Source: a plasmid
Direction: 5' to 3' (one strand)
Assembly (NCBI RefSeq): GCF_056712565.1
Contig: NZ_JBWXXM010000004.1
DNA: 64,000 nt
Shown: piece by piece, positions 1,346 through 43,155 of the stretch
How positions within the stretch are numbered: position 1 is the first letter of the stretch
Layout of the letters: each line of letters begins with the position of its first letter
Position numbers and translations under genes: made by a program
Notes under the pieces: model-generated
Seen by the model: the letters and a program-made list of their open reading frames with translations, nothing else
Told to the model about the DNA's origin: nothing
The model's database searches: none

Positions 1346-1427
1346 ATTATCAATTATGGTGCTATCACCTACGACACCGAGAGAAAATTTATAATGTCAA
1401 AAGTAAATGTTTTGATTTTTTCAGCAA

Positions 1428-1817
1428 TTGTTGGCTTTGGTTTTACTGCCGGAGTGCAGATTTATATTACGTGGGAAAAAATCATCAACTACGCATGGAG
1501 TTGTTTTATTAAGTGAGGTAAGTATGTGGAGAGGTAATAATCATGGCAAAAGCCAGATGATACTTACCGAATATAAGCTAGACCACAAAACCAATAAATC
1601 ACGCTCAGTATATTTGCTCCGGCACAATAGCCGCGTAAGAAATACCGTGCTGGAACAAAATCTGACAGTTGAAATGGATAATTGCGGGGGATTCAAGCCA
1701 ACAATTTCGCTTGATGATTTTCCTCGTGGTTTAAGCGAAAGAGAAGCAATGCTGAAATTAGCAGAATGGCTACAAAGATTAAGCATTGCTATTGAAGATA
1801 ACTGGTCTGAACCTTAA
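1428..1817 (+). CDS. hypothetical protein (129 aa; possible true start at ATG 1524 behind GAGGT)
   Basis: ORF track; internal ATG preceded by gtgaggtaagt. Confidence 0.3.
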   Translation: MLALVLLPECRFILRGKKSSTTHGVVLLSEVSMWRGNNHGKSQMILTEYKLDHKTNKSRSVYLLRHNSRVRNTVLEQNLTVEMDNCGGFKPTISLDDFPRGLSEREAMLKLAEWLQRLSIAIEDNWSEP

Positions 1818-1823
1818 ATTTAT

Positions 1824-2198
1824 ATGATGACACTAAAACATTTTCTTGACCGCCCATTATGGGCGGCAGCCGCAGGCTATGACTTTAATTATATGGATTG
1901 CATGTCTTATACTGCCAATGCATACGACCATTCGTTCATCCTGCTGTTTAATTCTTTAAGAATATTGCCGGAAACAGAAGTTGGAGAGCTTCATTTATGG
2001 CTATTGGGCTTTATCGCGGCTGTCGTTGGTATTGCTGTATGGCCTTTTATTTTCTGGCTGGTGGCTGTTGTAGTGTGGTTTAAGTGCAAGACATACCGGA
2101 AAAAGTATTTCTTAGGTGATGGAATGACTGATATTGCCAAAATGAACATTGAAGAATGGACTAAGGAATGTGAAAAGAAATGGCGCAAAAAGAAATGA
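1824..2198 (+). CDS. small membrane protein (124 aa)
   Basis: Long hydrophobic segment LHLWLLGFIAAVVGIAVWPFIFWLVAVVVWF followed by a Lys-rich tail. Confidence 0.35.
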   Translation: MMTLKHFLDRPLWAAAAGYDFNYMDCMSYTANAYDHSFILLFNSLRILPETEVGELHLWLLGFIAAVVGIAVWPFIFWLVAVVVWFKCKTYRKKYFLGDGMTDIAKMNIEEWTKECEKKWRKKK

Positions 2199-2830
2199 CC
2201 AGAATCACTGAAGAGCGCATATCAGAGATTATTTCCCGTATCGAAATGTATGGTCACGGTGCTGGATATACGGCAGATGAAGTATTGGAAATAGCCCAGC
2301 AGATGCTGGCCTTGAGACAAAAAGAGCAACATGAAAGTAATACGTGTAGATTGAATTTTGAGCATTGGCTGGAACAGCAACGCGGAAAAATCGATGTGGA
2401 CTGTGGTTGTGTGTCCACTGAAACATTCATGCACTGGCTGCGGGTAGCTTACGAGGCTGGCAACTATCCGGATATTCCGGATAGTTCGGTGCCAGCGCCA
2501 GGAAAGGGCGTCACCGGTGAACGTATCCGCATTAAGCCGCATGTTTATCGCGAACTGGTTAACCGTCTCCACGATACAGCGATCAAGTGTGCTGGCACCC
2601 AGCAATTACGAGAAAGAATTAGCCGTGTTTTGGGCGACGTTATTACACCAGATCATCATAAACAAGCCGAGAAAAGTGACCTGGAAAGGTGTCACCTTGA
2701 GGCGGCATTAAACATTAAGCCGGGGCATACGCTTGGCATTATTGATGCACTATTGGTTCATAAGATGGCCAGGGCTTTATTGCCGCTGGTGGCTGAAAAG
2801 CATGAGGTGGACCATGCCAACGAAAGCTGA
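2180..2830 (+). CDS. hypothetical protein (216 aa)
   Basis: ORF track; co-directional tight spacing with neighbours. Confidence 0.4.
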   Translation: MAQKEMTRITEERISEIISRIEMYGHGAGYTADEVLEIAQQMLALRQKEQHESNTCRLNFEHWLEQQRGKIDVDCGCVSTETFMHWLRVAYEAGNYPDIPDSSVPAPGKGVTGERIRIKPHVYRELVNRLHDTAIKCAGTQQLRERISRVLGDVITPDHHKQAEKSDLERCHLEAALNIKPGHTLGIIDALLVHKMARALLPLVAEKHEVDHANES

Positions 2831-3081
2831 ATTACAGGTGCGCGTAGATGAGCTGAAAAAGAGAACGCGAGCCTCAAAAAAATGCTGTCGCGGGCGGAAA
2901 GGGAATTATCAGGCAAATTATTGCCAGAAGAACTGCCACCAGCAGATATACTAGATCGAGTGTCCCAGTGGATGAAGTCTTTTGGTTTACCGTGGGAGGC
3001 TTTTTGGTGCTACGACCATCGCAGATGGTGTGATGAACTTGATAGCAATTTTCCCTACTTTGCGGAAGGGAACACCTGCCC

Positions 3082-3432
3082 TCAATGCAGGGGATAGCAT
3101 TTGACGAAATCGATCACCCTATCCTGAACTTCAGAAAGAAGGTCTTTTTCACGCGCCAGGACGTCAGGATATTGACGTTCTGGCCTTACCAGATGCCGGA
3201 GCTTCCCATTAAGCAGAATGGCCTCAGAAAACACTTTTACGCTGTGCTTTATCCCCTCTGTTTCACTTTTCAGCGTCAAAATAAAGCGCAATTGCTTATT
3301 AGCCTGATTCGGATTCAATACACGAATTTGCAGTTCGTCTATGCTGTTTCGCAATGGGATTGATGCCACCACACTGGTGCAGTCTCTGATTGTCTGAATT
3401 GAACGGCTAACATTGAGAACGTTATTGTGCAT
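3082..3432 (-). CDS. hypothetical protein (116 aa), lxr-position relative to hot/humD
   Basis: ORF track; position only. Confidence 0.3.
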   Translation of the reverse strand: MHNNVLNVSRSIQTIRDCTSVVASIPLRNSIDELQIRVLNPNQANKQLRFILTLKSETEGIKHSVKVFSEAILLNGKLRHLVRPERQYPDVLAREKDLLSEVQDRVIDFVKCYPLH

Positions 3433-3464
3433 GTGCCTGATCCACTAACTCCTGGAGGTTTCTT

Positions 3465-3716
3465 GTGTCAGATCGAAATATAGCAGCTAAAAGCCAGGAA
3501 GAGCGAGACAAGGTGAACGTAGACCTTGCCGCCAGCGGCGTTGCTTACAAAGAACGGCTGAATATACCTGTGATTGCAGAGCAGGTGGCCCGTGAGCAAC
3601 CGGAAAACCTGCGCGCCTATTTCATGGAACGGCTACGGCACTACCGGCAGTTAAGCCTCCAGTTGCCAAAAGGGAGCGATCCGGTGTATCAGAACGAGGA
3701 TGCACCAAAAAAATAA
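3465..3716 (+). CDS. hot: Hot, homologue of DNA polymerase III theta subunit (HolE)
   Basis: 83-aa product with [39 protein letters not shown] resembling theta subunit; P1-like synteny hot-humD-phd-doc. Confidence 0.75.
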
Positions 3717-3802
3717 CGGCAAGATGGGGGAGAAATGTGATTAGCCCCCAGCGTGGCGCGCCTACAAACCCCGCTTTCACAAACTATGCCTTTTCAATGT
3801 AT

Positions 3803-3822
3803 ACTGTATGAATAAACAGTAT
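3803..3822. promoter_or_regulatory. LexA box (SOS operator) upstream of humD
   Basis: tactgtatgaataaacagta = CTGT-N8-ACAG palindrome close to consensus TACTGTATATATATACAGTA, 18 nt upstream of the humD start. Confidence 0.6.
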
Positions 3823-3839
3823 CATTGAGGTAAAACGCT

Positions 3840-4229
3840 ATGGGCTTCCCTTCTCCTGCGGCGGATTATGTTGAAAGCCGAATTTCTCTTGATCAGCAGA
3901 TAATTAGACATCCATCAGCAACCTACTTCATGCGGGCAGCTGATAGCCATCACCGTGAGGGAATATTGCAGGGTGCTTTGCTGGTGGTTGATTCTTCGCT
4001 TACTCCAGTTGATGGTTCGCTGCTTGTGTGCGCTATGGAGGGTGAATATCGCATAAAGAGATACAGGAAGTATCCGCGCCAGCACCTGGAGGATTTAAGC
4101 ACCGGGAAGAAAGAGGCGTTACCAGTAGATGACGATGGATGCACGGGCAGTAATGCTGTTTTTGGTGTGATCACTCATGTCATCAATGATGCCCGAAGTG
4201 GGGAGTTTGATGATTGTCCGGTTATTTAA
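3840..4229 (+). CDS. humD: HumD, UmuD-like S24 peptidase-family SOS mutagenesis protein
   Basis: 129-aa product, LexA/UmuD-like C-terminal domain; LexA box upstream; P1 synteny. Confidence 0.8.
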   Translation: MGFPSPAADYVESRISLDQQIIRHPSATYFMRAADSHHREGILQGALLVVDSSLTPVDGSLLVCAMEGEYRIKRYRKYPRQHLEDLSTGKKEALPVDDDGCTGSNAVFGVITHVINDARSGEFDDCPVI

Positions 4230-4301
4230 GCTGCAAAGGGCTGGTGCTTTATGCCTGTGAGGTTTATAATTGTGTACACATAACGAGTACACGAGGTGTT
4301 T

Positions 4302-4523
4302 ATGCAATCCATTAACTTCCGTACCGCGCGCGGCAACCTTTCTGAAGTGCTCAACAATGTTGAAGCCGGGGAAGAGGTTGAAATCACCCGCAGAGGCCGT
4401 GAGCCAGCAGTAATTGTCAGCAAGGCTACTTTCGAAGCCTACAAAAAAGCGGCGCTGGATGCTGAATTTGCATCCCTGTTTGACACCCTGGACTCCACCA
4501 ACAAGGAACTGGTTAACCGATAA
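4302..4523 (+). CDS. phd: Phd antitoxin (prevents host death)
   Basis: Translation [73 protein letters not shown] matches P1 Phd as I recall it; stop overlaps doc ATG (taATGa). Confidence 0.9.
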
Positions 4524-4903
4524 TGAGGCATATATCACCGGAAGAACTTATTGCGCTTCATGATGCGAATATAAGCCGCTACGGCGGCCTGCCTGGCATG
4601 TCAGATCCGGGCAGGGCAGAGGCCATTATCGGGAGAGTTCAGGCCAGAGTTGCCTACGAAGAGATCACCGACCTTTTCGAAGTCTCCGCCACCTACCTGG
4701 TGGCTACAGCGAGAGGGCATATATTCAATGATGCCAATAAGCGTACCGCGCTAAACAGCGCGCTGCTATTTCTACGCCGTAACGGGGTGCAGGTATTTGA
4801 TTCACCTGAACTGGCAGACCTTACTGTAGGCGCTGCGACTGGCGAGATATCTGTATCTTCTGTCGCCGACACGTTACGTAGATTGTATGGTTCTGCGGAG
4901 TAG
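4523..4903 (+). CDS. doc: Doc toxin (death on curing; Fic-fold kinase)
   Basis: 126-aa product [22 protein letters not shown]...; translationally coupled to phd. Confidence 0.9.
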
Positions 4904-5087
4904 ATTAATGGCACGCAAATACAACAAATTGTCCCTTGAAGCGTTAAAGATGCTTCTTGATGGCGTGAGTCGCCGCAAGGTAAAGCAATACCTGGTTGGT
5001 AAGCAAATTGGAGTCAGGACCGCTATTGCTGTGTTATGCCGTCAGGAAATGGTTGTGCTTAAACAGAGAATGCCGGGCAGCAGATAA
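4887..5087 (+). CDS. hypothetical small protein (66 aa), post-doc position
   Basis: ORF track only. Confidence 0.25.
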
Positions 5088-5114
5088 AGCCCAATCAGTG
5101 ATTAAAGGTGTGAT

Positions 5115-6158
5115 GTGAAAGCCGTAATTACTCCCTTTGTACAGAAAGAGCTTGGCCTCGCCACGTTCAAAGTGGATCAGGAGGTCAGAAAACTGGTGGA
5201 GGCTGGCCGTAAATTTATCATGGAGCCGGTGCCGCGTGAGTTAATCGAGCACATGGAAGACGGCCTCGTTGTTACCGAGCAAACCATGGCAACAAATGAG
5301 GCGTTGCAGCCGTTTTTTAACAGCGATGAACTGTTTCGCCGTATTGGTGGAATTGACGCGCTGGTGGCGTGGTTGCGTAGGAAAGAGGGTCAATGCCAGG
5401 CCGCAGATCGTAGTTGGTGTGACAACCATATTGTCCACGCTGAACGAGACAATAGCGCGGTGTTGTTGTGCTGGCATCACGATAACCATTACCGGATGCG
5501 TGGTTTTAATGAGCTGAAAGAAACGCTGCACAATAATCGCGTTAACTGGATACTGGATGTCGCCCGTCAGGAAATGGGCCTTTCAAATAGCCATGATTTA
5601 AGTATTCAGGAGCTGTGCTGGTGGGCTTTCATGCGCAACATGATGCACCTGATGCCGGAAGAAGTCTGCCGCATATCAATAAATAAGATGAAGGCTACTC
5701 CGCAGGATAGCGGACCTCTGAAAGAGGCGGATATTCGCCCGTATGACGATCGCGCTACAGCATATGTTCAGATGATGGAAGAACGCGCCGCGCCGATGCG
5801 TGCAAAAGTATGCCCTGTGGATGTTGACTCCGACCCAGGTATGGCGCATTTCAAAATACCAAAACTTCAATCGCTAAAATTGCCCGAGTACATGGACTTT
5901 GTGGCTTCCCGTCCATGCTGTGGCTGTGGAGCTGCGGGAGCTGGCGCTCACATTACGCCTTATATCGTTCGTCATAGTCGATTATGCGCGCATGACATTT
6001 ATGCTATTCCTCTGTGCCAGTCATGCCAGCGTGATATTGAGCGTGACCGCGATAATTGGGAGAAGACGCACGGTAGGCTGGCGATGCATCAACGATTGTT
6101 CTTTGATTACGCGCTTGGAGTCGGCGCTATCACAAGTCACTCGTCGAGCGTTAGATAA
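5115..6158 (+). CDS. hypothetical protein with C-terminal Cys cluster (347 aa), post-doc position
   Basis: GTG start; C-terminal CCGCG...CAHD...CQSCQ metal-binding-like cluster. Confidence 0.45.
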
Positions 6159-6159
6159 A

Positions 6160-6176
6160 ATTGCTCTAATGTATTG
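6160..6176 (+). promoter_or_regulatory. C1 operator-like 17-mer upstream of lpa-position gene
   Basis: attgctctaatgtattg, 13/17 to the P1 C1 operator consensus ATTGCTCTAATAAATTT. Confidence 0.4.
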
Positions 6177-6246
6177 CTATTTCTTTAATCGAGGGTATTA
6201 TATTCCACGTTGATTAGTTGACATGGGCTAATCAGTAGGTGACAGG

Positions 6247-6699
6247 ATGTTACTTAACTGGCAGGGACGCCACTTCATGGAAATAAATCACTCACGAATA
6301 ACATCGTACGAGATTGCGGATTACATGATCCGCACTAAATCTCTTCTATCAGCGAAAGAACTCGCAGCAATTCTTGAAAAGGAATACCCGCATCTGGATG
6401 TCGATAAGCGCGATGTTTATCTGCGCTTAAAGGCTATCGCTGTGTCTAAGTATTCGTCTGTTTTGATTGATGACAGTACACGCCCACGTAGATTTCAGAT
6501 CCACTCTCTGAATCCTGAATTCTTTCGCCGCAGCCGCGCTCCGCGCCGGTTTGATGAAAAACTCCAGAACGAACTCTATATGACGCAGGACGAAAAGGAA
6601 CGCCGGGAGCACCAGCCTTGGGTGATGGCGCGTCAACTTTTCAATAAGGTGGTCCGTCAGCACCGTCATTACGGTAATGCCACATCCGCACGTATCTGA
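6247..6699 (+). CDS. late promoter activator (Lpa)-position protein, 150 aa
   Basis: Immediately upstream of pacA with a C1-operator-like site in front, as for P1 lpa; identity by synteny only. Confidence 0.45.
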   Translation: MLLNWQGRHFMEINHSRITSYEIADYMIRTKSLLSAKELAAILEKEYPHLDVDKRDVYLRLKAIAVSKYSSVLIDDSTRPRRFQIHSLNPEFFRRSRAPRRFDEKLQNELYMTQDEKERREHQPWVMARQLFNKVVRQHRHYGNATSARI

Positions 6700-6785
6700 T
6701 TGATTGCTTGCCCGTTCCGGGCCTTTTGACATGTGACTTTCGTTACCCTCGCGTCAAAAAGAGTTTTATACGAAAGGAAGCATAA

Positions 6786-7978
6786 GTGACCTGGGACGAT
6801 CACAAGAAGAATTTTGCTCGCCTGGCGCGAGATGGTGGTTACACCATCGCACAATATGCCGCCGAGTTTAATCTCAACCCAAACACCGCACGTCGTTATC
6901 TCCGTGCATTCAAAGAAGACACCGGAACAGCGGACAGCCGTAAGCCAAATAAGCCTGTCAGAAAACCACTAAAAAGCATGATCATTGATCACGCTAATGA
7001 TCAACGTGCAGGTGATCACATTGTGGCTGAAATGGCTGAAAAACAAAGAGTTAATGCTGTTGTCAGTGCCGCAGTCGAGAACGCGAAGCGCCAGAATAAG
7101 CGCATAAATGATCGTTCTGATGATCATGACGTGATCACCCGCGCCCACCGGACCTTACGTGATCGCCTGGAACGCGACACCCTGGATGATGATGGTGAAC
7201 GCTTTGAATTCGAAGCTGGCGATTACCTGATAGATAACGTTGAAGCGCGGAAGGCCGCGCGCGCTATGTTGCGTCGGTCCGGGGCTGATGTTCTGGAAAC
7301 CACTCTTCTGGAAAAGTCTCTCTCTCATCTCCTTATGCTGGAGAACGCCAGGGATACGTGTATTCGCTTGGTTCAGGAAATGCGCGATCAGCAAAAAGAC
7401 GATGATGAAGGAACTCCGCCTGAATACCGTATCGCGAGCATGCTAAACAGCTGTTCCGCGCAGATAAGCAGCCTGATCAACACCATTTACAGCATCCGGA
7501 ATAACTATCGAAAAGAAAGCCGGGAGGCGGAAAAGCACGCTTTGTCTATGGGGCAAGCTGGCATTGTAAGCTGGCATACGAACGAAAGCGTGAAAACAAC
7601 TGGTCAGTGCTGGAGGCAGCTGAATTCATCGAGGCGCATGGAGGGAAAGTACCGCCCCTGATGCTGGAGCAAATCAAAGCCGATCTGCGTGCTCCTAAGA
7701 CCAATACCGATGATGAGGAAAGGCAAACAGCCGTCGGTGGCCCTTCTCTTGAAGATCTGGACAAAGTTGCGCGAGAACGGGCCGCCAACCGCCGCGCCGA
7801 TGCCGCATTGTGGATTGAGCAGCGTAGGGAAGAAATCGCCGATATCGTTGATACAGGCGGTTATGGAGATGTTGATACTGAAGGTGTATCAAACGACCCA
7901 TGGCTGGAACAAGACCTGGACGAAGACGAGGAGGAAGACGAAGAAGTTACCCGCAAGCTATACGGGGATGATGATTAA
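6786..7978 (+). CDS. pacA: terminase small subunit PacA, reading frame broken in this sequence (ORFs 6786-7661 and 7607-7978)
   Basis: Contains the pac hexamer cluster; directly precedes pacB; total span 1193 nt (one short of a multiple of 3); the second frame reads continuously upstream to about 7580. Confidence 0.65.
6979..7137. other. pac packaging site: 4 + 3 TGATCA/G hexamers flanking the cleavage region
   Basis: TGATCA at 6979, 6986, 6998, 7013 and TGATCG/TGATCA at 7109, 7121, 7132; each contains a Dam GATC; the 4+3 layout is that of P1 pac. Confidence 0.75.
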
Positions 7979-9462
7979 TGGCCAGAAGTTGCGTAACGGA
8001 TCCACGTTGGCGCGAGCTGGTGGCGCTATATCGTTATGACTGGATTGCTGCCGCTGATGTTTTGTTCGGCAAAACACCTACCTGGCAGCAGGATCTGATT
8101 ATTGAGTCTGTGCAGGAACAGGGTAGCAAGACATCTGTTTCGTCTGGTCACGGTACCGGGAAATCAGACATGACTTCTATCATGATCATGTTGTTCATAA
8201 TCATGTATCCAGGTGCCCGTGCCATTATCGTTGCGAACAAAATTCAGCAGGTAATGACCGGTATATTCAAGTACATCAAGATAAACTGGGCTACTGCCAC
8301 CAGCCGTTTCCCATGGCTTGCTGATTATTTTGTTCTGACAGAAACCGCTTTCTATGAGATTACTGGTAAAGGTGTATGGACTGTAGTACCGAAGGGCTTT
8401 CGTCTGGGAAGTGAAGAAGCTCTCGCCGGTGAACACGCAGATCATCTTCTGTATATTATCGATGAAGCCTCCGGTGTCAGTGATAGAGCTTTCGGTATCA
8501 TCACCGGTGCTCTTACCGGACAGGATAACCGCATCTTATTGCTGTCACAGCCTACACGCCCAAGCGGCTATTTCTACGATACACACCATAAACTGGCCAA
8601 GCGTCCTGGTAACCCTGATGGCGTTTATACGGCGATCACGCTTAACAGTGAGGAATCACCGTTGGTAACGCCAGCATTTATCAAAATGAAGCTGGCGGAG
8701 TACGGCGGGCGTGATAACCCTATGTACATGATTAAGGTACGCGGCCTATTCCCTAAATCACAGGATGGCTTCCTTCTTGGACGTGATGAGGTTGAACGTG
8801 CGACGCGGCGGAAAGTCAAGATTGCCAAAGGATGGGGCTGGCTTGCATGTGTGGACGTTGCTGGTGGTACGGGACGGGATAAGTCCGTTATCAATATCAT
8901 GATGGTGTCCGGCCAGAGAAATAAACGCCGTGTAATCAACTATCGAATGCTGGAATACACAGACGTTACAGAAACGCAGCTTGCCGCCAAAATTTTCGCA
9001 GAATGTAATCCTGAGCGATTCCCAAATATCACCATAGCGATAGACGGCGATGGGCTGGGTAAAGCAACGGCGGATCTGATGTACGAGTATTATGGTATTA
9101 CCGTACAGCGTATACGCTGGGGTAAAAAGATGCATAGCCGTGAAGATAAGAGCCTGTACTTTGATAAACGTGCTTATGCCAACGTTCAAGCCGCAGAGGC
9201 CGTAAAATCTGGTCGTATGAGACTGGATAAGGGTAATGAAACTATTGAGGAAGCGTCGAAAATCCCTGTAGGGATTAACTCCGCAGGTCAATGGAAGGTG
9301 ATGAGTAAGGAGGATATGAAGAAAAAACTCAACCTGCACTCACCAGACCATTGGGATACATATTGTTTCGCTATGCTGGCGGATTATGTTCCCCAGGATG
9401 AAGTGCTTAGCGTCGAAGACGAAGCGCAGGTTGATGAAGCTCTGGCATGGCTTAATGAATAA
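7978..9462 (+). CDS. pacB: terminase large subunit PacB
   Basis: 494-aa product; follows pacA; terminase-like ATPase region. Confidence 0.85.
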
Positions 9463-36000: not shown

Positions 36001-36185
36001 ATGCTAATAGGCTATGTACGCATATAGACAAATGAACAAAACACAGCTATGCAGTGAAAAGCACTTGAAAGCGCAGGATGTGAGCTAATTTTTGCGAATA
36101 AGGCGAGCAGCAAAAAAGCTGGGCACCCTGGGTTAAAAAAGGTTCTGCGTATGCTTTCCAGAGGTGATACCCTAGTCTCGGACTA
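36001..36185 (+). pseudogene. degenerate 5' fragment of a Cin/Gin/Hin-family serine invertase gene, inverted relative to the adjacent invertase
   Basis: Translation MLIGYVRI*TNEQNTAMQ*KALESAGCELIFANKASSKKAGHPGLKKVLRMLSRGDTLVSD* aligns to invertase residues 1-61 with two in-frame stops. Confidence 0.6.
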
Positions 36186-36212: not shown

Positions 36213-36641
36213 TTAGCGGTCAGCAGGCGCTAGATACATCGAATTGATGTGCCGCGCGATAAATGTACCTATTCTATCAAGATAAATTACACCGACGCGG
36301 CAAGCACCCATGACATGAAAAAAGAAACGCCCCATGGGTGTTGATGTGTCAATACTGTCTGTCAGACTACGGAAATTAACACCTTTTTCCCGCAACTCCT
36401 CTATAAGCGTGATAAGGTGTTTCATACTTCTGCCAAGCCTATCCAGCTTCCAGACAACCAGCGTATCTCCTTCTGATAACGTTCTGAGCAGCTTTTTCAA
36501 GCCTGGTCTGGCTGACTTTGTTCCGCTTATTTTATCTTCAAAAATCAGTTCACATCCTGCGCAGTTCAGTGCATTTCTTTGTAAATCTGTGTTTTGGTCA
36601 TTTGTTGACACACGAATGTAGCCAATTTGCATGAAAAACAA
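36213..36641 (-). CDS. cin: Cin/Min-family serine DNA invertase, C-terminally truncated (homology ends after about residue 113 at about nt 36301)
   Basis: MQIGYIRVSTNDQNTDLQRNALNCAGCELIFEDKISGTKSARPGLKKLLRTLSEGDTLVVWKLDRLGRSMKHLITLIEELREKGVNFRSLTDSIDTSTPMGRFFFHVMGA matches the Gin/Hin/Cin catalytic domain; the next 29 residues are unrelated and the HTH domain is absent. Confidence 0.75.
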   Translation of the reverse strand: MFFMQIGYIRVSTNDQNTDLQRNALNCAGCELIFEDKISGTKSARPGLKKLLRTLSEGDTLVVWKLDRLGRSMKHLITLIEELREKGVNFRSLTDSIDTSTPMGRFFFHVMGACRVGVIYLDRIGTFIARHINSMYLAPADR

Positions 36642-36692
36642 CCTCTTTGTTTAGTTAAAAATACATCGTTGGTATAGGTAGGGATTAAGACT

Positions 36693-36717
36693 AAAACGTT
36701 GGTTTGGGGGAAGGCTC
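36693..36717 (+). other. invertase crossover site xs-1 (cix/mix-like), starts cassette tfc-1
   Basis: aaaacgTTggtttgggggaaggctc; core AACGTTGGTTT resembles the Hin/Gin/Cin family core AAACC-NN-GGTTT; 62 bp from the divergent invertase start. Confidence 0.55.
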
Positions 36718-37171
36718 GGCACTGCCCGTTGGTGTACCTGTTCCATGGCCCTCAGCCACACCACCAACGGGGTGGCTGAAATGCAATGGTGCAGCATTTT
36801 CTTCTGAAAAGTACCCAAATCTGGCAAAGGTTTACCCTACTAATAAATTGCCGGATCTACGGGGCGAATTTATTCGCGGCTGGGATGACGGGCGGGGGAT
36901 TGACTCTGGCCGTAATTTATTATCTGCACAGAATGATGCAATTCAGAATATTGTTGGTTCTTTCGGGCGTACTCAGCTTTTTAGAGATGTACTTAGTTCA
37001 GGGCCATTTAGTCAACATGGTCAAGTATTATCTACAGGCCTAAAGGAAACGGAAATTATTGAGGGTTATGGCTCTTATAACTGGACATTCGACGCCTCTC
37101 GCTCAGTTCGTACAGCATCTGAAACCCGCCCCCGTAATATTGCATTTAATTACATCGTAAGGGCGGCATAA
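36704..37171 (+). CDS. silent tail-fibre C-terminal cassette tfc-1 (TTG start, no promoter)
   Basis: Begins (M/L)GEGSALPVGVPVPWPSATPPTGWLKCNGAAFSSEKYPNLAKVYPTNKLPDLRGEFIRGWDDGRG, same as the junction of S, then a unique 80-aa core, ends ETRPRNIAFNYIVRAA. Confidence 0.65.
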   Translation: MGEGSALPVGVPVPWPSATPPTGWLKCNGAAFSSEKYPNLAKVYPTNKLPDLRGEFIRGWDDGRGIDSGRNLLSAQNDAIQNIVGSFGRTQLFRDVLSSGPFSQHGQVLSTGLKETEIIEGYGSYNWTFDASRSVRTASETRPRNIAFNYIVRAA

Positions 37172-37195
37172 AAACGTTGGTTTGGGGGAAGGCTC
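37171..37195 (+). other. crossover site xs-2
   Basis: aaaacgttggtttgggggaaggctc directly after the tfc-1 stop. Confidence 0.55.
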
Positions 37196-37658
37196 AGCAT
37201 TGCCCGTTGGCGTGCCCGTTCCGTGGCCCTTAGAAACACCGCCAACGGGGTGGCTGAAATGTAACGGAGCAGCATTTTCTTCTGAAATGTATCCCAAACT
37301 GGCAAAGGCCTACCCCACCAATAAATTACCGGATTTACGGGGAGAATTTATTCGCGGCTGGGATGATGGGCGCGGGGTGGATGCGGGACGTGCTTTATTG
37401 AGCATTCAGACAGGAATGCTGGAAAAGCACCGACATATTGTTGTAGCCAATGATGGTTACGACACAAAAGATGAATGGGAGCTGGCGACAATTTTCAAAA
37501 AAACATACACACAAGGACGGGGGCTTGATGCCTCAAATACAGGAGGGAATTTGATTCCATCACCGACACTTCATTCTCGAGGGAGTATTGGTAATACTGG
37601 CGGGAGTGAAACCCGTCCACGAAATATCGCATTTAATTACATCGTAAGGGCGGCATAA
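37182..37658 (+). CDS. silent tail-fibre C-terminal cassette tfc-2
   Basis: Same conserved head (PLETPP/SSEMYPKLAKAYPT allele) and tail ETRPRNIAFNYIVRAA, distinct core. Confidence 0.65.
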   Translation: MGEGSALPVGVPVPWPLETPPTGWLKCNGAAFSSEMYPKLAKAYPTNKLPDLRGEFIRGWDDGRGVDAGRALLSIQTGMLEKHRHIVVANDGYDTKDEWELATIFKKTYTQGRGLDASNTGGNLIPSPTLHSRGSIGNTGGSETRPRNIAFNYIVRAA

Positions 37659-37682
37659 AAACGTTGGTTTGGGGGAAGGCTC
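37658..37682 (+). other. crossover site xs-3
   Basis: aaaacgttggtttgggggaaggctc. Confidence 0.55.
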
Positions 37683-38133
37683 TGCACTGCCTGTTGGTGT
37701 GCCCGTTCCGTGGCCCTTAGAAACACCACCAACGGGCTGGCTAAAATGCAATGGTGCAGCATTTTCTTCTGAAATGTATCCCAAACTGGCAAAGGCCTAC
37801 CCCACCAATAAATTACCGGATTTACGCGGTGAGTTTATCCGTGGTTGGGATGATGGGCGAGGTGTGGATGCGGGAAGGGTCATCTTAAGCATACAGGGGT
37901 GGTTACAGGAAGTCATTATCATAATATTCGGTCATGGGACGCGTGGATAACACGGTATTGGTGCCATTAATTGACATGAGGGGGGGATAGTCTGTTGTCG
38001 ACAGATAACGCCGTCAGGCATTTTCAGCGATTAATGGTAAATTTCACCAGTCAACTCTGTAGGTGATGGTATAAATTTTGTTGCTGTCAGGCCGCGAAAT
38101 ATCGCATTTAATTACATCGTAAGGGCGGCATAA
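37669..38133 (+). pseudogene. degenerate duplicate of cassette tfc-4 (frameshifted cassette tfc-3)
   Basis: Near-identical to 38144-38602 at DNA level but with indels (ggttacagg vs ggttaacagg); ORF stops after 93 codons although the terminal RPRNIAFNYIVRAA coding block is present at 38090-38133. Confidence 0.55.
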
Positions 38134-38157
38134 AAACGTTGGTTTGGGGGAAGGCTC
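38133..38157 (+). other. crossover site xs-4
   Basis: aaaacgttggtttgggggaaggctc. Confidence 0.55.
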
Positions 38158-38602
38158 TGCACTGCCTGTTGGTGTGCCCGTTCCGTGGCCCTTAGAAACA
38201 CCACCAACGGGCTGGCTAAAATGCAATGGTGCAGCATTTTCTTCTGAAATGTATCCCAAACTGGCAAAGGCCTACCCCACCAATAAATTACCGGATTTAC
38301 GCGGTGAGTTTATCCGTGGTTGGGATGATGGGCGAGGTGTGGATGCGGGAAGGGTCATCTTAAGCATACAGGGGTGGTTAACAGGAAGTCATTATCATAA
38401 TATTCGGTCATGGGACGCGTGGGATAACACGGTATTGGTGCCAAATGACAGAGGGGGGGATAGTCTGTTGTCGACAGATAACGCCGTCCGGCAAGGAGCG
38501 ATTAATGGTAAATTTACCAGTCAATACAGAACGGAGTTATCTGGGGGGAATGAAACCCGCCCACGTAACATTGCCTTCAATTATATTGTGAGAGCAGCAT
38601 AA
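38144..38602 (+). CDS. silent tail-fibre C-terminal cassette tfc-4, coupled to a tail fibre assembly gene
   Basis: 152-aa cassette; stop overlaps the ATG of the following tfa gene (taATGg). Confidence 0.65.
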   Translation: MGEGSALPVGVPVPWPLETPPTGWLKCNGAAFSSEMYPKLAKAYPTNKLPDLRGEFIRGWDDGRGVDAGRVILSIQGWLTGSHYHNIRSWDAWDNTVLVPNDRGGDSLLSTDNAVRQGAINGKFTSQYRTELSGGNETRPRNIAFNYIVRAA

Positions 38603-39213
38603 TGGATAATGCGATATTAAATAGCGAACTTATAGCCATACAGGCAGGAAACATTATCGTTTATAACTATGATGGTGGTAATCGGGAATATATTTCTGCA
38701 TCAACTGAATATCTTGCTGTTGGCGTTGGTATTCCGGCAAATTCTTGTTTGGATGCTCCAGGCTCACATAAAGCAGGTTATGCGATTCTCCGTTCAGAGG
38801 ATTTAAGTTCATGGGAGTATGTGCCAGATCATCGTGGCGAAACTGTCTATAGCATTGACACTGGGAATCCCGAAGAAATCACGGTGTTGGGTGACTATCC
38901 GGAAAATACAACCACTATCGCCCCGCTAACACCATACGACAAATGGGATGGAGAGAAATGGGTGGTTGATACTGAGGCTCAACATAGTGCAGCTGTAGAG
39001 GCAGCAGAAACAAAACGTCAGTCATTGATTGATACTGCGATGGATTCCATTAGTCTGATTCAGTTGAAATTACGGGCTGGACGGAAGTTGACGCAGGCAG
39101 AAACCACGCAGCTTAACTCCGTGCTAGATTATATAGACGAGCTGAACGCGATGGATTTAACCACGGCACCAGATCTCAACTGGCCTGAAAAACAACTTTC
39201 TACAGCCAGTTGA
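38602..39213 (+). CDS. tail fibre assembly chaperone (Tfa / U-like)
   Basis: 203-aa product; Tfa-like C-terminal region DYIDELNAMD...WPE; translationally coupled to tfc-4, as U follows Sv in Mu/P1. Confidence 0.65.
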   Translation: MDNAILNSELIAIQAGNIIVYNYDGGNREYISASTEYLAVGVGIPANSCLDAPGSHKAGYAILRSEDLSSWEYVPDHRGETVYSIDTGNPEEITVLGDYPENTTTIAPLTPYDKWDGEKWVVDTEAQHSAAVEAAETKRQSLIDTAMDSISLIQLKLRAGRKLTQAETTQLNSVLDYIDELNAMDLTTAPDLNWPEKQLSTAS

Positions 39214-39218
39214 TATAA

Positions 39219-39716
39219 TTAATCCGCCCTCACAATATAATTAAATGCAATATTACGAGGGCGGGTTTCTAAGCCAGCAGTACCTAAATTAGCTACGGAC
39301 TGTTTATATGTTTTAAAAGTTCCATAATTAGGGGCTGGCAATCCTGCATCGCTTGTGTTCCCCCATCTGATAACTCCCGTATTACCACTAGTAGCCCATG
39401 CCTCGTCAAAGTAGAAATTAATTGAGCGGTCAGTTGCTACGGTTGATTTTGACGGTAATCCGTGAGCATGATCCTCCGTTGCATATCCTTGCTCGCTTAA
39501 AATAGAGCGACCAGAGTCAATCCCTCGCCCATCATCCCAGCCACGGATAAACTCACCGCGTAAATCAGGTAATTTTAACGTTGGGTAAACCTTTGCCAGA
39601 TTTGGGTACTTTTCAGAAGAAAATGCTGCACCATTGCATTTCAGCCACCCCGTTGGCGGTGTGGCTGAGGGCCATGGAATAGGTACACCAACGGGCAGCG
39701 CCGAGCCTTCCCCTAA
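39219..39716 (-). CDS. silent tail-fibre C-terminal cassette tfc-5 (no start codon: TTA at the crossover site)
   Basis: Open frame LGEGSALPVGVPIPWPSATPP...ETRPRNIAFNYIVRAD; missing from the ORF track because it begins TTA-GGG instead of TTG-GGG. Confidence 0.55.
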   Translation of the reverse strand, partial: LGEGSALPVGVPIPWPSATPPTGWLKCNGAAFSSEKYPNLAKVYPTLKLPDLRGEFIRGWDDGRGIDSGRSILSEQGYATEDHAHGLPSKSTVATDRSINFYFDEAWATSGNTGVIRWGNTSDAGLPAPNYGTFKTYKQSVANLGTAGLETRPRNIAFNYIVRAD

Positions 39717-39727
39717 ACCAACGTTTT
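39703..39727 (-). other. crossover site xs-5 (TTA variant, like the site in S)
   Basis: Plus strand gagccttcccctaaaccaacgtttt. Confidence 0.55.
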
Positions 39728-40155
39728 CATGCCGCCCTTACGATATAATTAAACGCAATGTTACGAGGACGAATGGTTACATAATTAACCCCATCACCTC
39801 GTGAAGGCCCTGCAAATGAAAAACGGGAAAATCCTGGTTGGTTAGAAACAATTTGGTCATAGTTATTGATTGAATGACCAGACCCAATGTCGAAATTACC
39901 TCCGTAATGAGAAAAACTTGTACCATCCTGCCCTGAAAGCAGGGTACGTCCCGCATCAATCCCGCGCCCATCATCCCAGCCACGGATAAATTCACCGCGT
40001 AAATCCGGTAATTTATTGGTGGGGTAGGCTTTTGCCAGTTTGGGATACATTTCAGAAGAAAATGCTGCACCATTGCATTTTAGCCAGCCCGTTGGTGGTG
40101 TTTCTAAGGGCCACGGAACGGGCACACCAACAGGCAATGCTGAGCCTTCCCCCAA
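39727..40155 (-). CDS. silent tail-fibre C-terminal cassette tfc-6
   Basis: 142-aa; conserved head and tail, unique core. Confidence 0.65.
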   Translation of the reverse strand: MGEGSALPVGVPVPWPLETPPTGWLKCNGAAFSSEMYPKLAKAYPTNKLPDLRGEFIRGWDDGRGIDAGRTLLSGQDGTSFSHYGGNFDIGSGHSINNYDQIVSNQPGFSRFSFAGPSRGDGVNYVTIRPRNIAFNYIVRAA

Positions 40156-40166
40156 ACCAACGTTTT
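40142..40166 (-). other. crossover site xs-6
   Basis: Plus strand gagccttcccccaaaccaacgtttt. Confidence 0.55.
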
Positions 40167-40669
40167 TATGCCGCCCTTACGATGTAATTAAATGCAACGT
40201 TGCGAGGGCGAGTTTCTGTACCTACATTTCCACTAATTTCACCATAACGTTTAACACTACGAGAGCTAATAGCTCGTAGTGAGGAAGGCACCTTATGACC
40301 GGGTTCGTCCGTTTTAACTATTCCCCCGTCACCGTATGTAGCTAGTATTCCTGGATTTACGCCTTCCCGTGCACTTCCTGCGGCGAGTCCGTCCCCTGTC
40401 CATAATTCCATATAGTGTGCATGGTCCAAAATTGTGTGTGGCTGCCAATTAAGCAAAGCGCGGCCAGCATCCACCCCGCGCCCATCATCCCAGCCACGGA
40501 TAAATTCACCGCGTAAATCAGGTAATTTTAACGTTGGGTAAACCTTTGCCAGATTTGGGTACTTTTCAGAAGAAAATGCTGCACCATTGCATTTCAGCCA
40601 CCCCGTTGGCGGTGTGGCTGAGGGCCATGGAATAGGTACACCAACGGGCAGCGCCGAGCCTTCCCCTAA
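40166..40669 (-). CDS. silent tail-fibre C-terminal cassette tfc-7 (no start codon; ORF track shows only its GTG-started distal 102 aa)
   Basis: Continuous frame LGEGSALPVGVPIPWPSATPP...GRGVDAGRALLNWQ...ETRPRNVAFNYIVRAA. Confidence 0.55.
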   Translation of the reverse strand, partial: LGEGSALPVGVPIPWPSATPPTGWLKCNGAAFSSEKYPNLAKVYPTLKLPDLRGEFIRGWDDGRGVDAGRALLNWQPHTILDHAHYMELWTGDGLAAGSAREGVNPGILATYGDGGIVKTDEPGHKVPSSLRAISSRSVKRYGEISGNVGTETRPRNVAFNYIVRAA

Positions 40670-40680
40670 ACCAACGTTTT
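40656..40680 (-). other. crossover site xs-7 (TTA variant)
   Basis: Plus strand gagccttcccctaaaccaacgtttt. Confidence 0.55.
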
Positions 40681-41141
40681 TATGCCGCCCTTACGATATA
40701 ATTAAAGGCAATATTACGAGGACGGTTTTCATTAGCTGTTGGCACGACACGAGAGGCGTCGAATCCAAGGTCATCGGTTTTGCCTATATCAGTTGTGTTA
40801 TTCGGCATTCTCGCAGATCGTGTTCCTGCATCATAAAAAGCCCCTCTGATTGCATCAAAAGACATGCCAATCCCGCCATCTGCGAACCCCTCAATATTTC
40901 TTATTGCATCCCCCTGTGAAGATAATAATTGTCGCCCGGCATCCACACCACGTCCGTCATCCCAGCCACGAATAAATTCACCGCGTAAATCCGGCAATTT
41001 ATTAGTAGGGTAAACCTTTGCCAGATTTGGGTACTTTTCAGAAGAAAATGCTGCTCCGTTACATTTCAGCCACCCCGTTGGCGGAGTGGCTGAGGGCCAC
41101 GGAACAGGTACGCCAACAGGCAATGCTGAGCCTTCCCCCAA
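40680..41141 (-). CDS. silent tail-fibre C-terminal cassette tfc-8
   Basis: 153-aa; conserved head and tail, unique core. Confidence 0.65.
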   Translation of the reverse strand: MGEGSALPVGVPVPWPSATPPTGWLKCNGAAFSSEKYPNLAKVYPTNKLPDLRGEFIRGWDDGRGVDAGRQLLSSQGDAIRNIEGFADGGIGMSFDAIRGAFYDAGTRSARMPNNTTDIGKTDDLGFDASRVVPTANENRPRNIAFNYIVRAA

Positions 41142-41152
41142 ACCAACGTTTT
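41128..41152 (-). other. crossover site xs-8
   Basis: Plus strand gagccttcccccaaaccaacgtttt. Confidence 0.55.
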
Positions 41153-41505
41153 TATGTGGCCCTTACAATGTAATTAAAAGCAACGTTGCGGGGGCGCATT
41201 GATATCCATGCCCCGGTAAAATTATCCTCTGCCGTCCTTTGAGTGCCTGTTATGGAGTTATCTGATGATGCTGGAACATAATCGCTATTATCTCCTGCTT
41301 TAGGATTAGCAGGGTTTCCAACAGTTATAACAGAATCAGCAGCGATACCTACTTTGACATTAGTAGTCAGATCGACACCGTAATAATCCTGCAAAGCTGT
41401 ACGAATAAATGTTGCAGTCTGACCACTTAGCAATGAACGCCCTGTATCAATCCCTCTCGAATCATCCCAACCACGGATAAACTCACCGCGTAAATCAGGT
41501 AATTT
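41152..41505 (-). CDS. distal part of the tail-fibre cassette now in expression position (tfc-9), in frame with S but separated from it by a TAA at 41506-41508
   Basis: Frame continues from the S stop: *KLPDLRGEFIRGWDDSRGIDTGRSLLSGQTATFIR...SMRPRNVAFNYIVRAT. Confidence 0.55.
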   Translation of the reverse strand, partial: KLPDLRGEFIRGWDDSRGIDTGRSLLSGQTATFIRTALQDYYGVDLTTNVKVGIAADSVITVGNPANPKAGDNSDYVPASSDNSITGTQRTAEDNFTGAWISMRPRNVAFNYIVRAT

Positions 41506-43155
41506 TTACGTGGGGTAAACCTTTGCCAGATTTGGGTACTTTTCAGAAGAAAATGCTGCTCCGTTACATTTCAGCCACCCCGTTGGTGGTGTGGCGGAGG
41601 GCCATGGAACAGGTACACCAACGGGCAGCGCCGAGCCTTCCCCTAAACCAAGGTAATCAAGAACGCTATGAATACTGGTCTTACCAAGAATGGCGCGTCC
41701 AACACTTGTCAATGCAGTTAACGCGGCACGATCAACACCTGTGAAATAAGGGAGTTTATCTGCTGCTGTAGCTAGTGCCGCTAGAGCAGTGAGCGTAGCG
41801 TCTGCCGCTTGCTTTCCATTAGCCAAATCATATGCAGCCTTGACAGCTTTCGGTGTGGCGGCCAGCACTTCAGACGTGCTGTTAGTGGCACTACTGAGCT
41901 GAGTGATGCCTTTCGCTGTCAATGAAGCTGTTGGCACACCAGTGATCTGATTCCAGGGATGTGTATGACTGGATGGTGCCTTTCCGGCTGCTAGATCGTA
42001 TGCAGCTTTAACCGCTTTTGGAGTTGCAGCTAATGTTTCAGAAGTGCTGTTGGTGTCGCTACTGAGCTGAACTATCCCTTTTTGTGTCGTGGTTGCATCC
42101 TGGGCTGTATACTTCCCGTTAGCCAAATCATATGCAGCCTTGACAGCTTTCGGTGTGGCGGCCAGCACTTCGGACGTACTGTTAGTGGCACTACTGAGCT
42201 GAGTGATGCCTTTCGCTGTCAATGAAGCTGTTGGCACACCAGTGATCTGATTCCAGGGATGTGTATGACTGGATGGTGCCTTTCCGGCTGCTAGATCGTA
42301 TGCAGCTTTAACCGCTTTTGGAGTTGCAGCTAATCTGTTGGTGTCGCTACTGAGCTGAACTATCCCTTTTTGTGTCGTGGTTGCATCCTGGGCTGTATAC
42401 TTCCCGTTAGCCAAATCATATGCAGCCTTGACAGCTTTCGGTGTGGCGGCCAGCACTTCGGACGTACTGTTAGTGGCACTACTGAGCTGAACTAATCCCT
42501 TTTGCGTTGTGCTTGCATCCTGCGCCGTATACTTGCTTTTCGCCAGATCGTAGGCTTTTTTAACTGCCAGCGAACTCGCAGCAACATCACTTCTGGTACT
42601 GGTTACAGAGTCTGAAATATCAATGCCGATCGTGCGGTTGATACGCTCGGATGTATCAATCATCTCTTGAGTAATGGTAGATACGCCAGCAGGGATATTC
42701 ACCGTACAAACCAGCAGTTCCCCATCACCTAACTGATATGAATCGGTATAGGTTCTGGCAACAAATTCAGCTGCATGAATATGTGACGCGGTATTAACCT
42801 GATAGGTATCTTCTCCAAGAAGGTATCTTCCCTTCAGCACAATTGCATATTTCTTGCCTGCGTTAAGTGCAAGAGAGATATCCTTACGATGCTGAATAGT
42901 TACCTGGTAGAATTCACCAATATCCACTGACGCCGCGCCAGCGGTTTTATCTCCATCCACTGAGGTGATTAACAGGTTCATCCCACCGCCAGGCTTAGGC
43001 AAGAAACCAGCATAAAATCCCGGGTCAACAATTCCCCTGAATTTTCGGTTTAGAGCGGCTGACAGATATGGTTCGTGGTATTGCACATCAGCCACCAGAG
43101 CCAACGACTCGGGTGATGGGTAAGTAACCGATGTAACAACTGTAACGTCATTCAT
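41506..43155 (-). CDS. tail fibre protein S (constant N-terminal part plus start of the expressed cassette), ends at an in-frame ochre codon inside the conserved cassette head
   Basis: Start MNDVTVV behind AAGGA; internal repeats of the phage tail-fibre repeat motif (SSATNSTSEVLAATPKAVKAAYDLA); ends ...LGEGSALPVGVPVPWPSATPPTGWLKCNGAAFSSEKYPNLAKVYPT*. Confidence 0.7.
   Translation of the reverse strand: MNDVTVVTSVTYPSPESLALVADVQYHEPYLSAALNRKFRGIVDPGFYAGFLPKPGGGMNLLITSVDGDKTAGAASVDIGEFYQVTIQHRKDISLALNAGKKYAIVLKGRYLLGEDTYQVNTASHIHAAEFVARTYTDSYQLGDGELLVCTVNIPAGVSTITQEMIDTSERINRTIGIDISDSVTSTRSDVAASSLAVKKAYDLAKSKYTAQDASTTQKGLVQLSSATNSTSEVLAATPKAVKAAYDLANGKYTAQDATTTQKGIVQLSSDTNRLAATPKAVKAAYDLAAGKAPSSHTHPWNQITGVPTASLTAKGITQLSSATNSTSEVLAATPKAVKAAYDLANGKYTAQDATTTQKGIVQLSSDTNSTSETLAATPKAVKAAYDLAAGKAPSSHTHPWNQITGVPTASLTAKGITQLSSATNSTSEVLAATPKAVKAAYDLANGKQAADATLTALAALATAADKLPYFTGVDRAALTALTSVGRAILGKTSIHSVLDYLGLGEGSALPVGVPVPWPSATPPTGWLKCNGAAFSSEKYPNLAKVYPT
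41633..41658 (-). other. crossover site xs-9 inside S (constant/variable junction)
   Basis: Plus strand gagccttcccctaaaccaaggtaatc; core ACCTTGGTTTAGG, reverse-complement-symmetric around TT like Hin/Gin/Cin-family sites. Confidence 0.55.
41815..42530. repeat. about 300-bp tandem direct repeats (2.4 copies) inside S
   Basis: 41821-42120 and 42121-42405 nearly identical (second copy lacks 15 bp near 42336), third partial copy to about 42530. Confidence 0.7.

Follow-up and report, generated by a model that had tools for sequence, protein, structure and literature searches.

Does a stop codon in the expressed tail-fibre gene of a phage-plasmid mean that the element has lost its fibre, and with it the ability to spread as a phage? 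The question is raised by a 64,000-nucleotide plasmid stretch (contig NZ_JBWXXM010000004.1 of assembly GCF_056712565.1, hereafter the window), which derives from a phage-plasmid of the P1/p15B type that has nine cassettes for the fibre tip. Relatives that are 98–99.9% identical to the window carry the P1-type genes repA/parAB, c1, pacAB, darB, doc/phd and lysozyme. In the tail-fibre gene S, a 26-bp serine-invertase crossover site (Table 1) links a constant 5' part (Sc) to one of nine exchangeable 3' cassettes, and the cassette presently joined to Sc contains an in-frame ochre codon. We lean towards reading this codon as a genuine nonsense mutation of an element that is losing its phage competence.

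Table 1. Features of the tail-fibre locus and of the terminase gene, in window coordinates.
Feature	Position	Strand	Basis or remark
S constant part (Sc)	41651..43155	-	ATG 43155 to crossover core; follows gene R as in annotated relatives
Gene R	43601-43167	-	S start ATG 43155 lies 12 nt beyond R
S crossover site, 26 bp	41638..41663	-	TTCTTGATTACC TT GGTTTAGGGGAA, core TT 41651/41650
Cassette A, fibre tip currently joined to Sc	41152..41650	-	alignment with seven orthologous copies; Pfam Collar
In-frame ochre TAA	41506..41508	-	codon 550 of S, residue 47 of cassette A
Silent cassettes B, C, D, E, direct orientation	39219..41141	-	all frames open
Cassette B	41141-40680	-	crossover site 41158-41133
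Cassette C	40677-40166	-	crossover site 40686-40661
Cassette D	40155-39727	-	crossover site 40172-40147
Cassette E	39724-39219	-	crossover site 39733-39708
tfa, single tail-fibre assembly gene	38602..39213	+	directly after cassette I; relatives annotated tail fiber assembly protein
Silent cassettes F, G, H, I, inverted orientation	36704..38602	+	
Cassette F	36704-37171	+	crossover site 36687-36712
Cassette G	37182-37658	+	crossover site 37165-37190
Cassette H	37669-38133	+	decayed, frameshifted duplicate of I; crossover site 37652-37677
Cassette I	38144-38602	+	crossover site 38127-38152
Gin/Min-type serine invertase, truncated	36213..36641	-	residues 1-110 intact at 36632-36303
Terminase gene pacA, frameshifted	6786..7975	+	private 1-bp deletion at 7567, GTTAAG to GTAAG

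Each cassette encodes a T4 gp37-like tip, which consists of a collar, a variable part for receptor binding and a conserved ...RPRN(I/V)AFNYIVRA end. In agreement with this, the Pfam Collar profile (PF07484) matches cassette residues 10–57 over its full model length (E = 1.3e-14), and the T4 gp37 tip (PDB 2XGF; chaperone gp38 or Tfa) aligns at both cassette ends, its collar region with residues 5–70 and its terminal ...KNIAFNYIVRL, which includes the NIAFNYIVR motif, with ...RNVAFNYIVRA. Unlike gp37, the cassette is much shorter (~165 residues), has an unrelated middle part, and is modular and exchangeable by site-specific inversion. NCBIfam profiles gave no family matches for Sc, Tfa and the cassette. 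A locus search with Tfa returned mostly tfa genes, ~80% identical, from other prophages, and P1-like loci numbered only three.

The nine crossover sites, imperfectly symmetric 26-bp sequences with a 2-bp core, follow the pattern N12-TT-GGTTT(A/G)GGGGAA and occur in both orientations, with five on the minus and four on the plus strand. Their right half-site and core TT are common to all nine cassette starts; the left half-site at S, TTCTTGATTACC, presumably resembles the hixL half-site TTCTTGAAAACC. Alternative isomers, as expected for a Din-family system, occur among near-identical plasmids, where Sc is seen with cassettes of types A, C, E and I and tfa occurs in either orientation. Since at least four cassette types are joined to Sc in plasmids so similar to each other, cassette shuffling works in nature. 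In the isomer represented by the window tfa is antisense to S, as in three of nine relatives, the other six being co-oriented; we considered this antisense position as a second fibre defect and rejected it, because the three relatives that share it have an intact S.

This organization is closest to the Min multiple-inversion system of plasmid p15B from E. coli 15T-, reportedly described by Iida, Sandmeier and Arber in 1990–1992. Both have a P1-related IncY-type backbone, a Gin/Cin-like serine invertase beside the array, more than two crossover sites, and one constant 5' fibre part to which any of several promoterless 3' cassettes can be attached. They differ in the number of sites and cassettes, nine here against the six mix sites that p15B is said to have, and in the lesions, since here the invertase is deleted after residue 110 and the cassette in the expression site has a nonsense codon. 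In the Cin/C-segment of P1 and the Gin/G-segment of Mu the crossover site likewise falls within S, at the boundary of its constant and variable parts, and inversion alters the fibre tip and thereby the host range. By contrast, P1 and Mu have two sites and two tips, each tip with a dedicated assembly gene (U, U'), whereas the window has nine tips and one tfa, which is located inside the invertible region and antisense to S. The R64 shufflon (Rci/pilV) also provides one constant gene with many alternative 3' ends by multiple inversions, but Rci is a tyrosine recombinase that acts on other sites and its target is a pilus adhesin, so that the analogy is in logic only. The invertase of a related plasmid is 98.5% identical to Min (X62121) according to PMC6906374, which lists the p15B work as its reference 61.

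On its minus strand the window reads ...GTT TAC CCC ACG TAA AAA TTA CCT GAT TTA CGC..., which places the stop inside the Collar domain, immediately before the LPDLRG motif. Translation of S thus yields 549 residues ending in ...NLAKVYPT, out of 667 predicted for the uninterrupted gene, and beyond the stop the same frame continues KLPDLRGEFIRGWDD... and is open for 117 codons to the TAA at 41154–41152. The first-pass annotation had described precisely this situation, namely an in-frame TAA in S followed by a frame open to the natural end at 41152, the loss of about 118 residues including the variable tip, and a stop distal to the crossover site; all of it is borne out, with the stop 143 nt beyond the core TT. 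With intact orthologues and a downstream frame still open, S has the appearance of a nonsense pseudogene. Such a state is unusual, as S reaches the natural cassette end in 13 of the 14 relatives examined. Re-initiation past the stop is implausible: the first candidate start, a TTG at 41433, lacks an evident ribosome-binding site. Deprived of its whole tip and of the returning C-terminal strand, the truncated protein would be expected not to fold as a receptor-binding fibre end, judging from the homology with gp37.

Comparison with other copies of the cassette indicates how the stop arose. All seven orthologous copies of cassette A, from five related plasmids, have TTA (Leu) at this position and read cca ACG TTA aaa, so that a single T-to-A change creates the stop, beside a silent CCA-to-CCC change. 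Among the silent cassettes, C and E also carry TTA (ACGTTAAAATTACC at 40534–40521 and 39581–39568) and the other six (B, D, F, G, H and I) carry AAT, in accordance with the alternatives given beforehand; the single-base origin proposed there is likewise confirmed. The TTA version has 20 exact matches across 15 IMG/VR stretches. The TAA allele was absent from 5,426 E. coli genomes and 72,556 plasmids, searched by BLAST with a 71-nt query (best identity 97.2%, that is, both private bases differ), and from IMG/VR, the GTDB representatives and JGI metagenomes, where exact scans with a 36-mer carrying it found 0 matches in the three collections. An exact look-up of the 549-residue product likewise found nothing on record. 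As the TAA allele occurs nowhere else among these collections, it is a private lesion and not a conserved recoding signal. A T-to-A transversion in the expressed cassette, turning Leu TTA into ochre TAA, would thus end translation after residue 549.

Besides these two substitutions, cassette A has a third private change, a 9-bp in-frame deletion at 41343/41342. It differs from its best orthologue by 5 mismatches and one 9-bp gap, compared to 0–3 mismatches for the other cassettes; this excess is not significant as a sign of relaxed selection, private differences amounting to ~0.5% window-wide (259 in 50,007 positions). The new bases of both substitutions equal the base of the D/G/H/I paralogues at the same column (ccc acc aat). 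A single gene-conversion tract from a head of that type is an unlikely source, because the differing columns between the two changes are unconverted; patchy repair is a possible one.

The same pattern raises the possibility of a sequencing or assembly artefact, in which the true sequence would be cca ACG TTA and the consensus corrupted at two nearby columns, either because reads of the four D/G/H/I-type heads were mapped onto the cassette A head during polishing or because the boundary between a T-run and an A-run was shifted (TTAAAA read as TAAAAA). Two paralogue bases with unconverted columns between them are odd for a conversion tract and typical of per-column consensus noise, and TAA is the column-wise hybrid of TTA and AAT that mixed reads of paralogous heads would generate; the nine heads, 83–95% identical to each other, are prone to such mis-mapping. 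The absence of the allele from every collection searched also suits an error, as do three private 1-bp deletions at 7567 (in pacA), 23310 and 26961, which shorten short A/T runs (TT to T, TTT to TT and AAA to AA) in the manner typical of residual assembly errors. The one in pacA is the sole difference from plasmid NZ_CP134391.1 across window positions 1–8780, and its isolation in 8.8 kb otherwise identical to the nearest relative again fits an error. However, the window is not error-rich: it has six private indels in 50 kb, one of them disruptive, and almost all long ORFs are intact. The private 9-bp deletion in cassette A and the 248-bp deletion in the invertase gene are unlikely to be errors, which implies that real private change is present in the fibre region, and none of the other cassette heads, with their 0–3 mismatches, is comparably disrupted. 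We consequently hold an artefact to be possible but doubtful.

If the stop is real, it might still be bypassed by an ochre-suppressor tRNA, encoded by the host or by the part of the plasmid outside the window, or by programmed readthrough or frameshifting, full-length S being made in spite of it. The open downstream frame of 117 codons would permit this, and P1-family plasmids have tRNA genes of their own in a region outside that covered by the window. Nevertheless, such an open frame is just what a stop of very recent origin would show, the surroundings of CCC ACG TAA AAA contain no evident slippery or stimulatory element, and the stop is conserved in no relative, as a recoding signal would be. 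The search for an ochre suppressor suggested by the first-pass annotation gave no candidate: the window contains no tRNA gene, and the three tRNAs of the closest relative, with anticodons CAT, TGT and GTT, do not read UAA. Both release factors moreover recognize UAA, which in E. coli leaks less than the other stops; this also counts against bypass. We consider this explanation very improbable.

Whether the broken cassette can be replaced depends on the invertase. Its residues 1–110 (MQIGYIRVSTNDQ...) are 100% identical to those of the full-length enzyme of relatives, which can be aligned to Mu Gin (PDB 4M6F) across residues 1–185 (E = 4e-92) and matches Pfam Resolvase at residues 3–135, so the serine-recombinase catalytic domain with its N-terminal active-site serine is recognizable. 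By contrast, residues 111–190, which comprise most of helix E, a portion of the Resolvase domain and the entire HTH_7 (residues 138–180 in relatives), are removed by a deletion of 248 bp; compared with pHeN100_02 it is a clean one, its junction lying at 36302 between flanks that are 100% identical. The truncation noted earlier is thereby confirmed; with HTH_7 deleted, the gene is by descent a member of the Din family, yet its product cannot be enzymatically active. The size of the deletion makes a base-calling error unlikely. A 51-nt query across its junction matched none of 5,426 E. coli genomes, and a 121-nt query found only two-piece matches spanning 370 bp, which correspond to undeleted genes. 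In Hin and Cin systems, a Fis-dependent recombinational enhancer is located within the 5' part of the recombinase gene; as the truncated gene still has its first 330 nt, a putative enhancer of this kind may survive.

Having lost the DNA-binding half of its invertase, the element is unable to exchange the broken cassette by itself. Rescue could come from a Din-family invertase acting in trans, from RecA-mediated exchange of heads, or from reversion. Sequences related to the invertase match 189 places on E. coli chromosomes, and upstream of the stop the cassette A head has exact runs of 46–74 nt in common with each of five other heads, through which RecA could swap or delete cassettes. The idea of a phage locked in a fibre-defective state therefore stands in part: S is broken and the invertase deleted as proposed, but the lock leaks, since cassettes could be exchanged by chromosomal invertases or by RecA, and pacA is also hit, so that the loss is one of general competence.

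The pacA frameshift, found in no other of 555 records examined, points in the same direction as the invertase deletion, namely towards decay of virion functions. Damage beyond the fibre has to be read with a qualification, as it indicates either a wider decay of the element or a few assembly errors. Together, the stop in S, the invertase deletion and the pacA frameshift look like the ordinary decay of a resident phage, or sequencing error, and involve no new mechanism. Given private differences of ~0.5%, and ~3.8% of the possible substitutions in S creating a stop, one nonsense change is unremarkable once selection is relaxed. The remaining long phage ORFs compared are all intact; the decay, if real, is thus very recent. 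Most probably, the stop is an unselected loss-of-function mutation of recent date, in a phage-plasmid that persists as a plasmid with decaying virion functions; in so reading it we infer that the TAA base is genuine, that the junction of Sc and cassette A is the one from which S is expressed, and that the phenotype follows.

Alternatively, the broken cassette might be a tolerated or selected OFF state, a null cassette that, placed in the expression site by shuffling, yields fibreless particles or spares the host. Decayed cassettes are indeed common in such arrays, as exemplified by H here and by 'frameshifted' cassettes in relatives, and pHeN100_02 also has a disrupted cassette in its expression site. 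Yet an intact cassette is expressed in 13 of 14 relatives, the TAA allele is private, with cassette A intact in all other copies seen, and the deletion of the invertase prevents the element itself from switching. Fibre loss would leave lysis unaffected, and so an OFF state offers no obvious benefit to the host. These considerations leave the OFF state with hardly any probability.

Decay of a resident phage has precedents. Truncated cin-type invertases and degraded tail-fibre switches are already known in P1-like plasmids such as pSvP1 and pTZ20_1P, where they were interpreted as lost host-range switching or lost phage function (Venturini et al. 2019, PMC6906374). In those plasmids the lesions stem from IS elements and large deletions, whereas the window has a nearly intact backbone with small lesions, namely a nonsense codon, a 1-bp frameshift and a 248-bp deletion. 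Should the base be real, the plasmid has no functional tail fibre in its present arrangement, cannot rearrange by itself and, with the pacA frameshift, is probably no longer a transmissible phage. It would be a clean, small-lesion example of early domestication that reveals no new mechanism and bears on the prediction of infectious spread of phage-plasmids, among which carriage of resistance genes is frequent. Should it be an error, it provides a caution that consensus calling can make false stops among nine near-identical fibre heads.

Two further features of the sequence deserve mention. Sc contains a 300-nt tandem repeat (2.3 copies, at 41812–42490). Furthermore, three small lesions, namely the ochre change in S (cgTTAAAA to cgTAAAAA), the frameshift in pacA and one frameshift of cassette H (gTTAAc to gTTAc), all fall within a GTTAA motif, which covers only 1.1% of the window. 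The lesions might be non-independent and reflect sequence-specific mutation, for instance repair at sites modified by one of the many methyltransferases of the element, silencing virion genes; null cassettes serving as OFF states of a nine-way switch would be another option. We give very little credence to these suggestions.

The tail-fibre gene S of this P1-like plasmid is interrupted by a stop that is either a private nonsense codon or an error of the consensus. The fibre system is invertible and of a well-known kind, and the plasmid also shows an invertase deletion and a frameshift in its terminase gene. The first-pass annotation had read an ochre codon in the expressed cassette, together with a truncated invertase, as a phage locked in a fibre-defective state; this interpretation is largely right, and what it describes is ordinary. 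By BLAST, the window belongs to the P1/p15B family, E. coli phage-plasmids of the IncY type that are ~95 kb long and non-mobilizable; large parts of it are 98-99.9% identical to pHeN100_02 (NZ_CP044439.1) and pMTY10828_p0111 (NZ_CP134391.1). Downstream of S lie nine copies of a ~200-nt conserved head, each followed by its own 250-300-nt tip, and every one of these cassettes (A to I) starts with the 26-bp site N12-TT-GGTTT(A/G)GGGGAA. The p15B Min multiple-inversion system has the same architecture, and the well-established P1 C-segment and Mu G-segment have it in simpler form (see also PMC6906374). In near-identical plasmids, Sc, the constant 5' part of S, is fused to an A-, C-, E- or I-type cassette, and tfa, the tail-fibre assembly gene, is seen both ways round, which implies that the array is shuffled in nature. 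Cassettes A and H are the only broken ones in the window. Over ~270 nt the head of H shares 100% identity with cassette I, and the tip then has several indels of 1 nt and diverges at its end; H is a duplicate of I that has decayed, and the relatives examined have no close orthologue of it (77% at best).

Features of the fibre locus and of pacA in the window
Feature	Coordinates	Strand	Remark
Cassette A	end 41152	-	joined to S; ochre codon
Cassette B	41141-40680	-	open
Cassette C	40677-40166	-	open
Cassette D	40155-39727	-	open
Cassette E	39724-39219	-	open
Cassette F	36704-37171	+	open
Cassette G	37182-37658	+	open
Cassette H	37669-38133	+	frameshifted
Cassette I	38144-38602	+	open
tfa	38602-39213	+	single copy, directly after cassette I
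Crossover site of S	41663-41638	-	TTCTTGATTACC TT GGTTTAGGGGAA
S shaft	41812-42490	-	300-nt tandem repeat, 2.3 copies, 95% matches, in constant part
Truncated serine invertase	36641-36213	-	first 110 residues encoded
Invertase remnant	36001-36177	+	inverted, 59 residues
pacA (terminase gene)	6786-7975	+	frameshifted

S starts at ATG 43155, 12 nt past gene R, as in annotated relatives, and the minus strand reads GTT TAC CCC ACG TAA AAA TTA CCT GAT TTA CGC, with the TAA at 41508-41506. The product has 549 residues and ends in NLAKVYPT, the frame continuing for 117 further open codons (KLPDLRGEFIRGWDD...NYIVRAT) to a TAA at 41154-41152, and the equivalent codon in other cassettes is TTA (Leu) or AAT (Asn); what had been stated at first reading about the stop, the open frame beyond it and the other cassettes is all borne out. 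Since the stop lies 143 nt past the crossover core, and hence distal to the crossover site as had been claimed, it is part of the exchangeable cassette. Residues 10-57 of cassette A match Pfam Collar (PF07484), with the stop at residue 47, immediately ahead of the LPDLRG motif. Cassette A is a homologue of the T4 gp37 fibre tip (PDB 2XGF), whose collar aligns with cassette residues 5-70 and whose KNIAFNYIVRL aligns with the C-terminal RNVAFNYIVRA of the cassette. With a stop inside the Collar of a gp37-like tip, the 549-residue product has an incomplete collar, none of the variable part and no conserved C-terminal strand; by homology to gp37, it would be unable to form a working fibre tip.

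The proposed origin of the stop, a single T-to-A change, agrees with cassette A orthologues, all seven copies of which, in five plasmids, read cca ACG TTA aaa; the change is private. IMG/VR contains 20 exact copies of the TTA 36-mer, in 15 stretches, and the window's 36-mer with TAA was absent from IMG/VR, from GTDB representative genomes and from JGI metagenomes. Among 5,426 complete E. coli genomes and 72,556 plasmids, a 71-nt query reached 97.2% identity at best, every matched record differing at both private bases, and exact look-up of the 549-residue product returned no record. Because the TAA allele is private to the window, a conserved recoding signal is excluded. Regarding suppression, the window has no tRNA genes, and in the closest relative the anticodons of its three tRNAs are CAT, TGT and GTT. 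Cassette A has two other private changes, a silent CCA-to-CCC and a 9-bp in-frame deletion at 41343/41342.

Both substitutions in head A (41498-41512) match the base of the D, G, H and I paralogues (ccc acc aat; e.g. 37330-37345), making TAA, column by column, a mixture of Leu TTA and Asn AAT, and the differing columns between them are not converted to the D/G/H/I state. Unconverted columns of this kind would be unusual in a conversion tract and are a typical result of consensus noise between nine heads that are 83-95% identical, and they favour the main rival explanation, a stop created by consensus error, which we consider less likely than a real mutation. When all long ORFs of the window were compared with pHeN100_02, only three stood out: S, the invertase and pacA. 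The latter has a 1-bp deletion at 7567 (GTTAAG to GTAAG) that shifts the frame at ~codon 261 of 397; the undeleted form is present in 555/555 E. coli records with the segment, and the deletion is the sole difference from pMTY10828_p0111 across window 1-8780. Against the two relatives together, 259 differences are private in 50,007 comparable positions (~0.5%), six being indels. Private 1-bp deletions at 23310 and 26961, one between darB and the portal gene and one upstream of the lysozyme gene, shorten intergenic T or A runs (TTT to TT, AAA to AA), and these two and the pacA frameshift resemble leftover errors in short runs of A or T. By contrast, a 248-bp deletion in the invertase gene is hard to blame on base-calling, so real private damage is present at the locus. 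Moreover, 3.8% of possible substitutions in S create a stop which, combined with the private divergence, means that one nonsense hit is fairly often expected once virion selection is relaxed. Truncated cin-type genes and degraded fibre switches have already been described in P1-like plasmids (PMC6906374). We lean towards a nonsense mutation that is real and recent, in an element that would be retained as a plasmid while its phage competence is being lost. Three small lesions fall in GTTAA (pacA 7567, gTTAAg to gTAAg; S 41507, cgTTAAAA to cgTAAAAA; cassette H ~37930, gTTAAc to gTTAc), and GTTAA/TTAAC makes up 1.1% of the window; this post hoc pattern, weak as evidence, may reflect coincidence, systematic sequencing error or sequence-specific mutation.

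The truncated invertase gene is adjacent to the cassette array. The full-length invertase of the relatives aligns with Mu Gin (PDB 4M6F, E = 4e-92) and contains Pfam Resolvase (residues 3-135) and HTH_7 (residues 138-180). Its truncation here, already noticed at first reading, is a clean deletion with 100% identical flanks that removes residues 111-190 and 6 nt, and none of 5,426 E. coli genomes contained its junction. The proposed lock holds insofar as the element's own invertase is dead and no other serine recombinase exists within the window beyond the remnant downstream of it, which corresponds to invertase residues 1-59 (63% identical). Since pHeN100_02 has this inverted remnant too, it is long established in the family, and it may be what is left of a cin-like gene that was replaced. 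However, Din-family invertases can substitute for one another, and related invertase sequences have 189 matching places on E. coli chromosomes. The Hin and Cin enhancer sits in the first part of the recombinase gene, and the 330 nt retained at the start of the gene would preserve the predicted enhancer. In addition, between crossover core and stop, head A shares exact 46-74-nt runs with B, C and E (direct) and with F and G (inverted), so that RecA could delete or invert to an intact fusion with no invertase needed. The fibre-defective state is therefore stable, yet not irreversible.

There is a single tfa for the nine cassettes, located within the invertible region; speculatively, their conserved ...RPRN(I/V)AFNYIVRA end might let a single Tfa chaperone serve all. 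In the window isomer tfa is antisense to S, a candidate second defect that we rejected because three of nine relatives, all with intact S, share this orientation, which is thus a normal isomer. Near 42334, the tandem repeat of the S shaft has lost 12 nt in frame, a private change. The relatives have S products of 559 to 974 residues, presumably through varying repeat number. In pHeN100_02, cassette A at the expression site (locus 8536-9069) is also disrupted, by three 1-nt indels, and S ends after 502 residues, the sole broken expressed S among 14 relatives.
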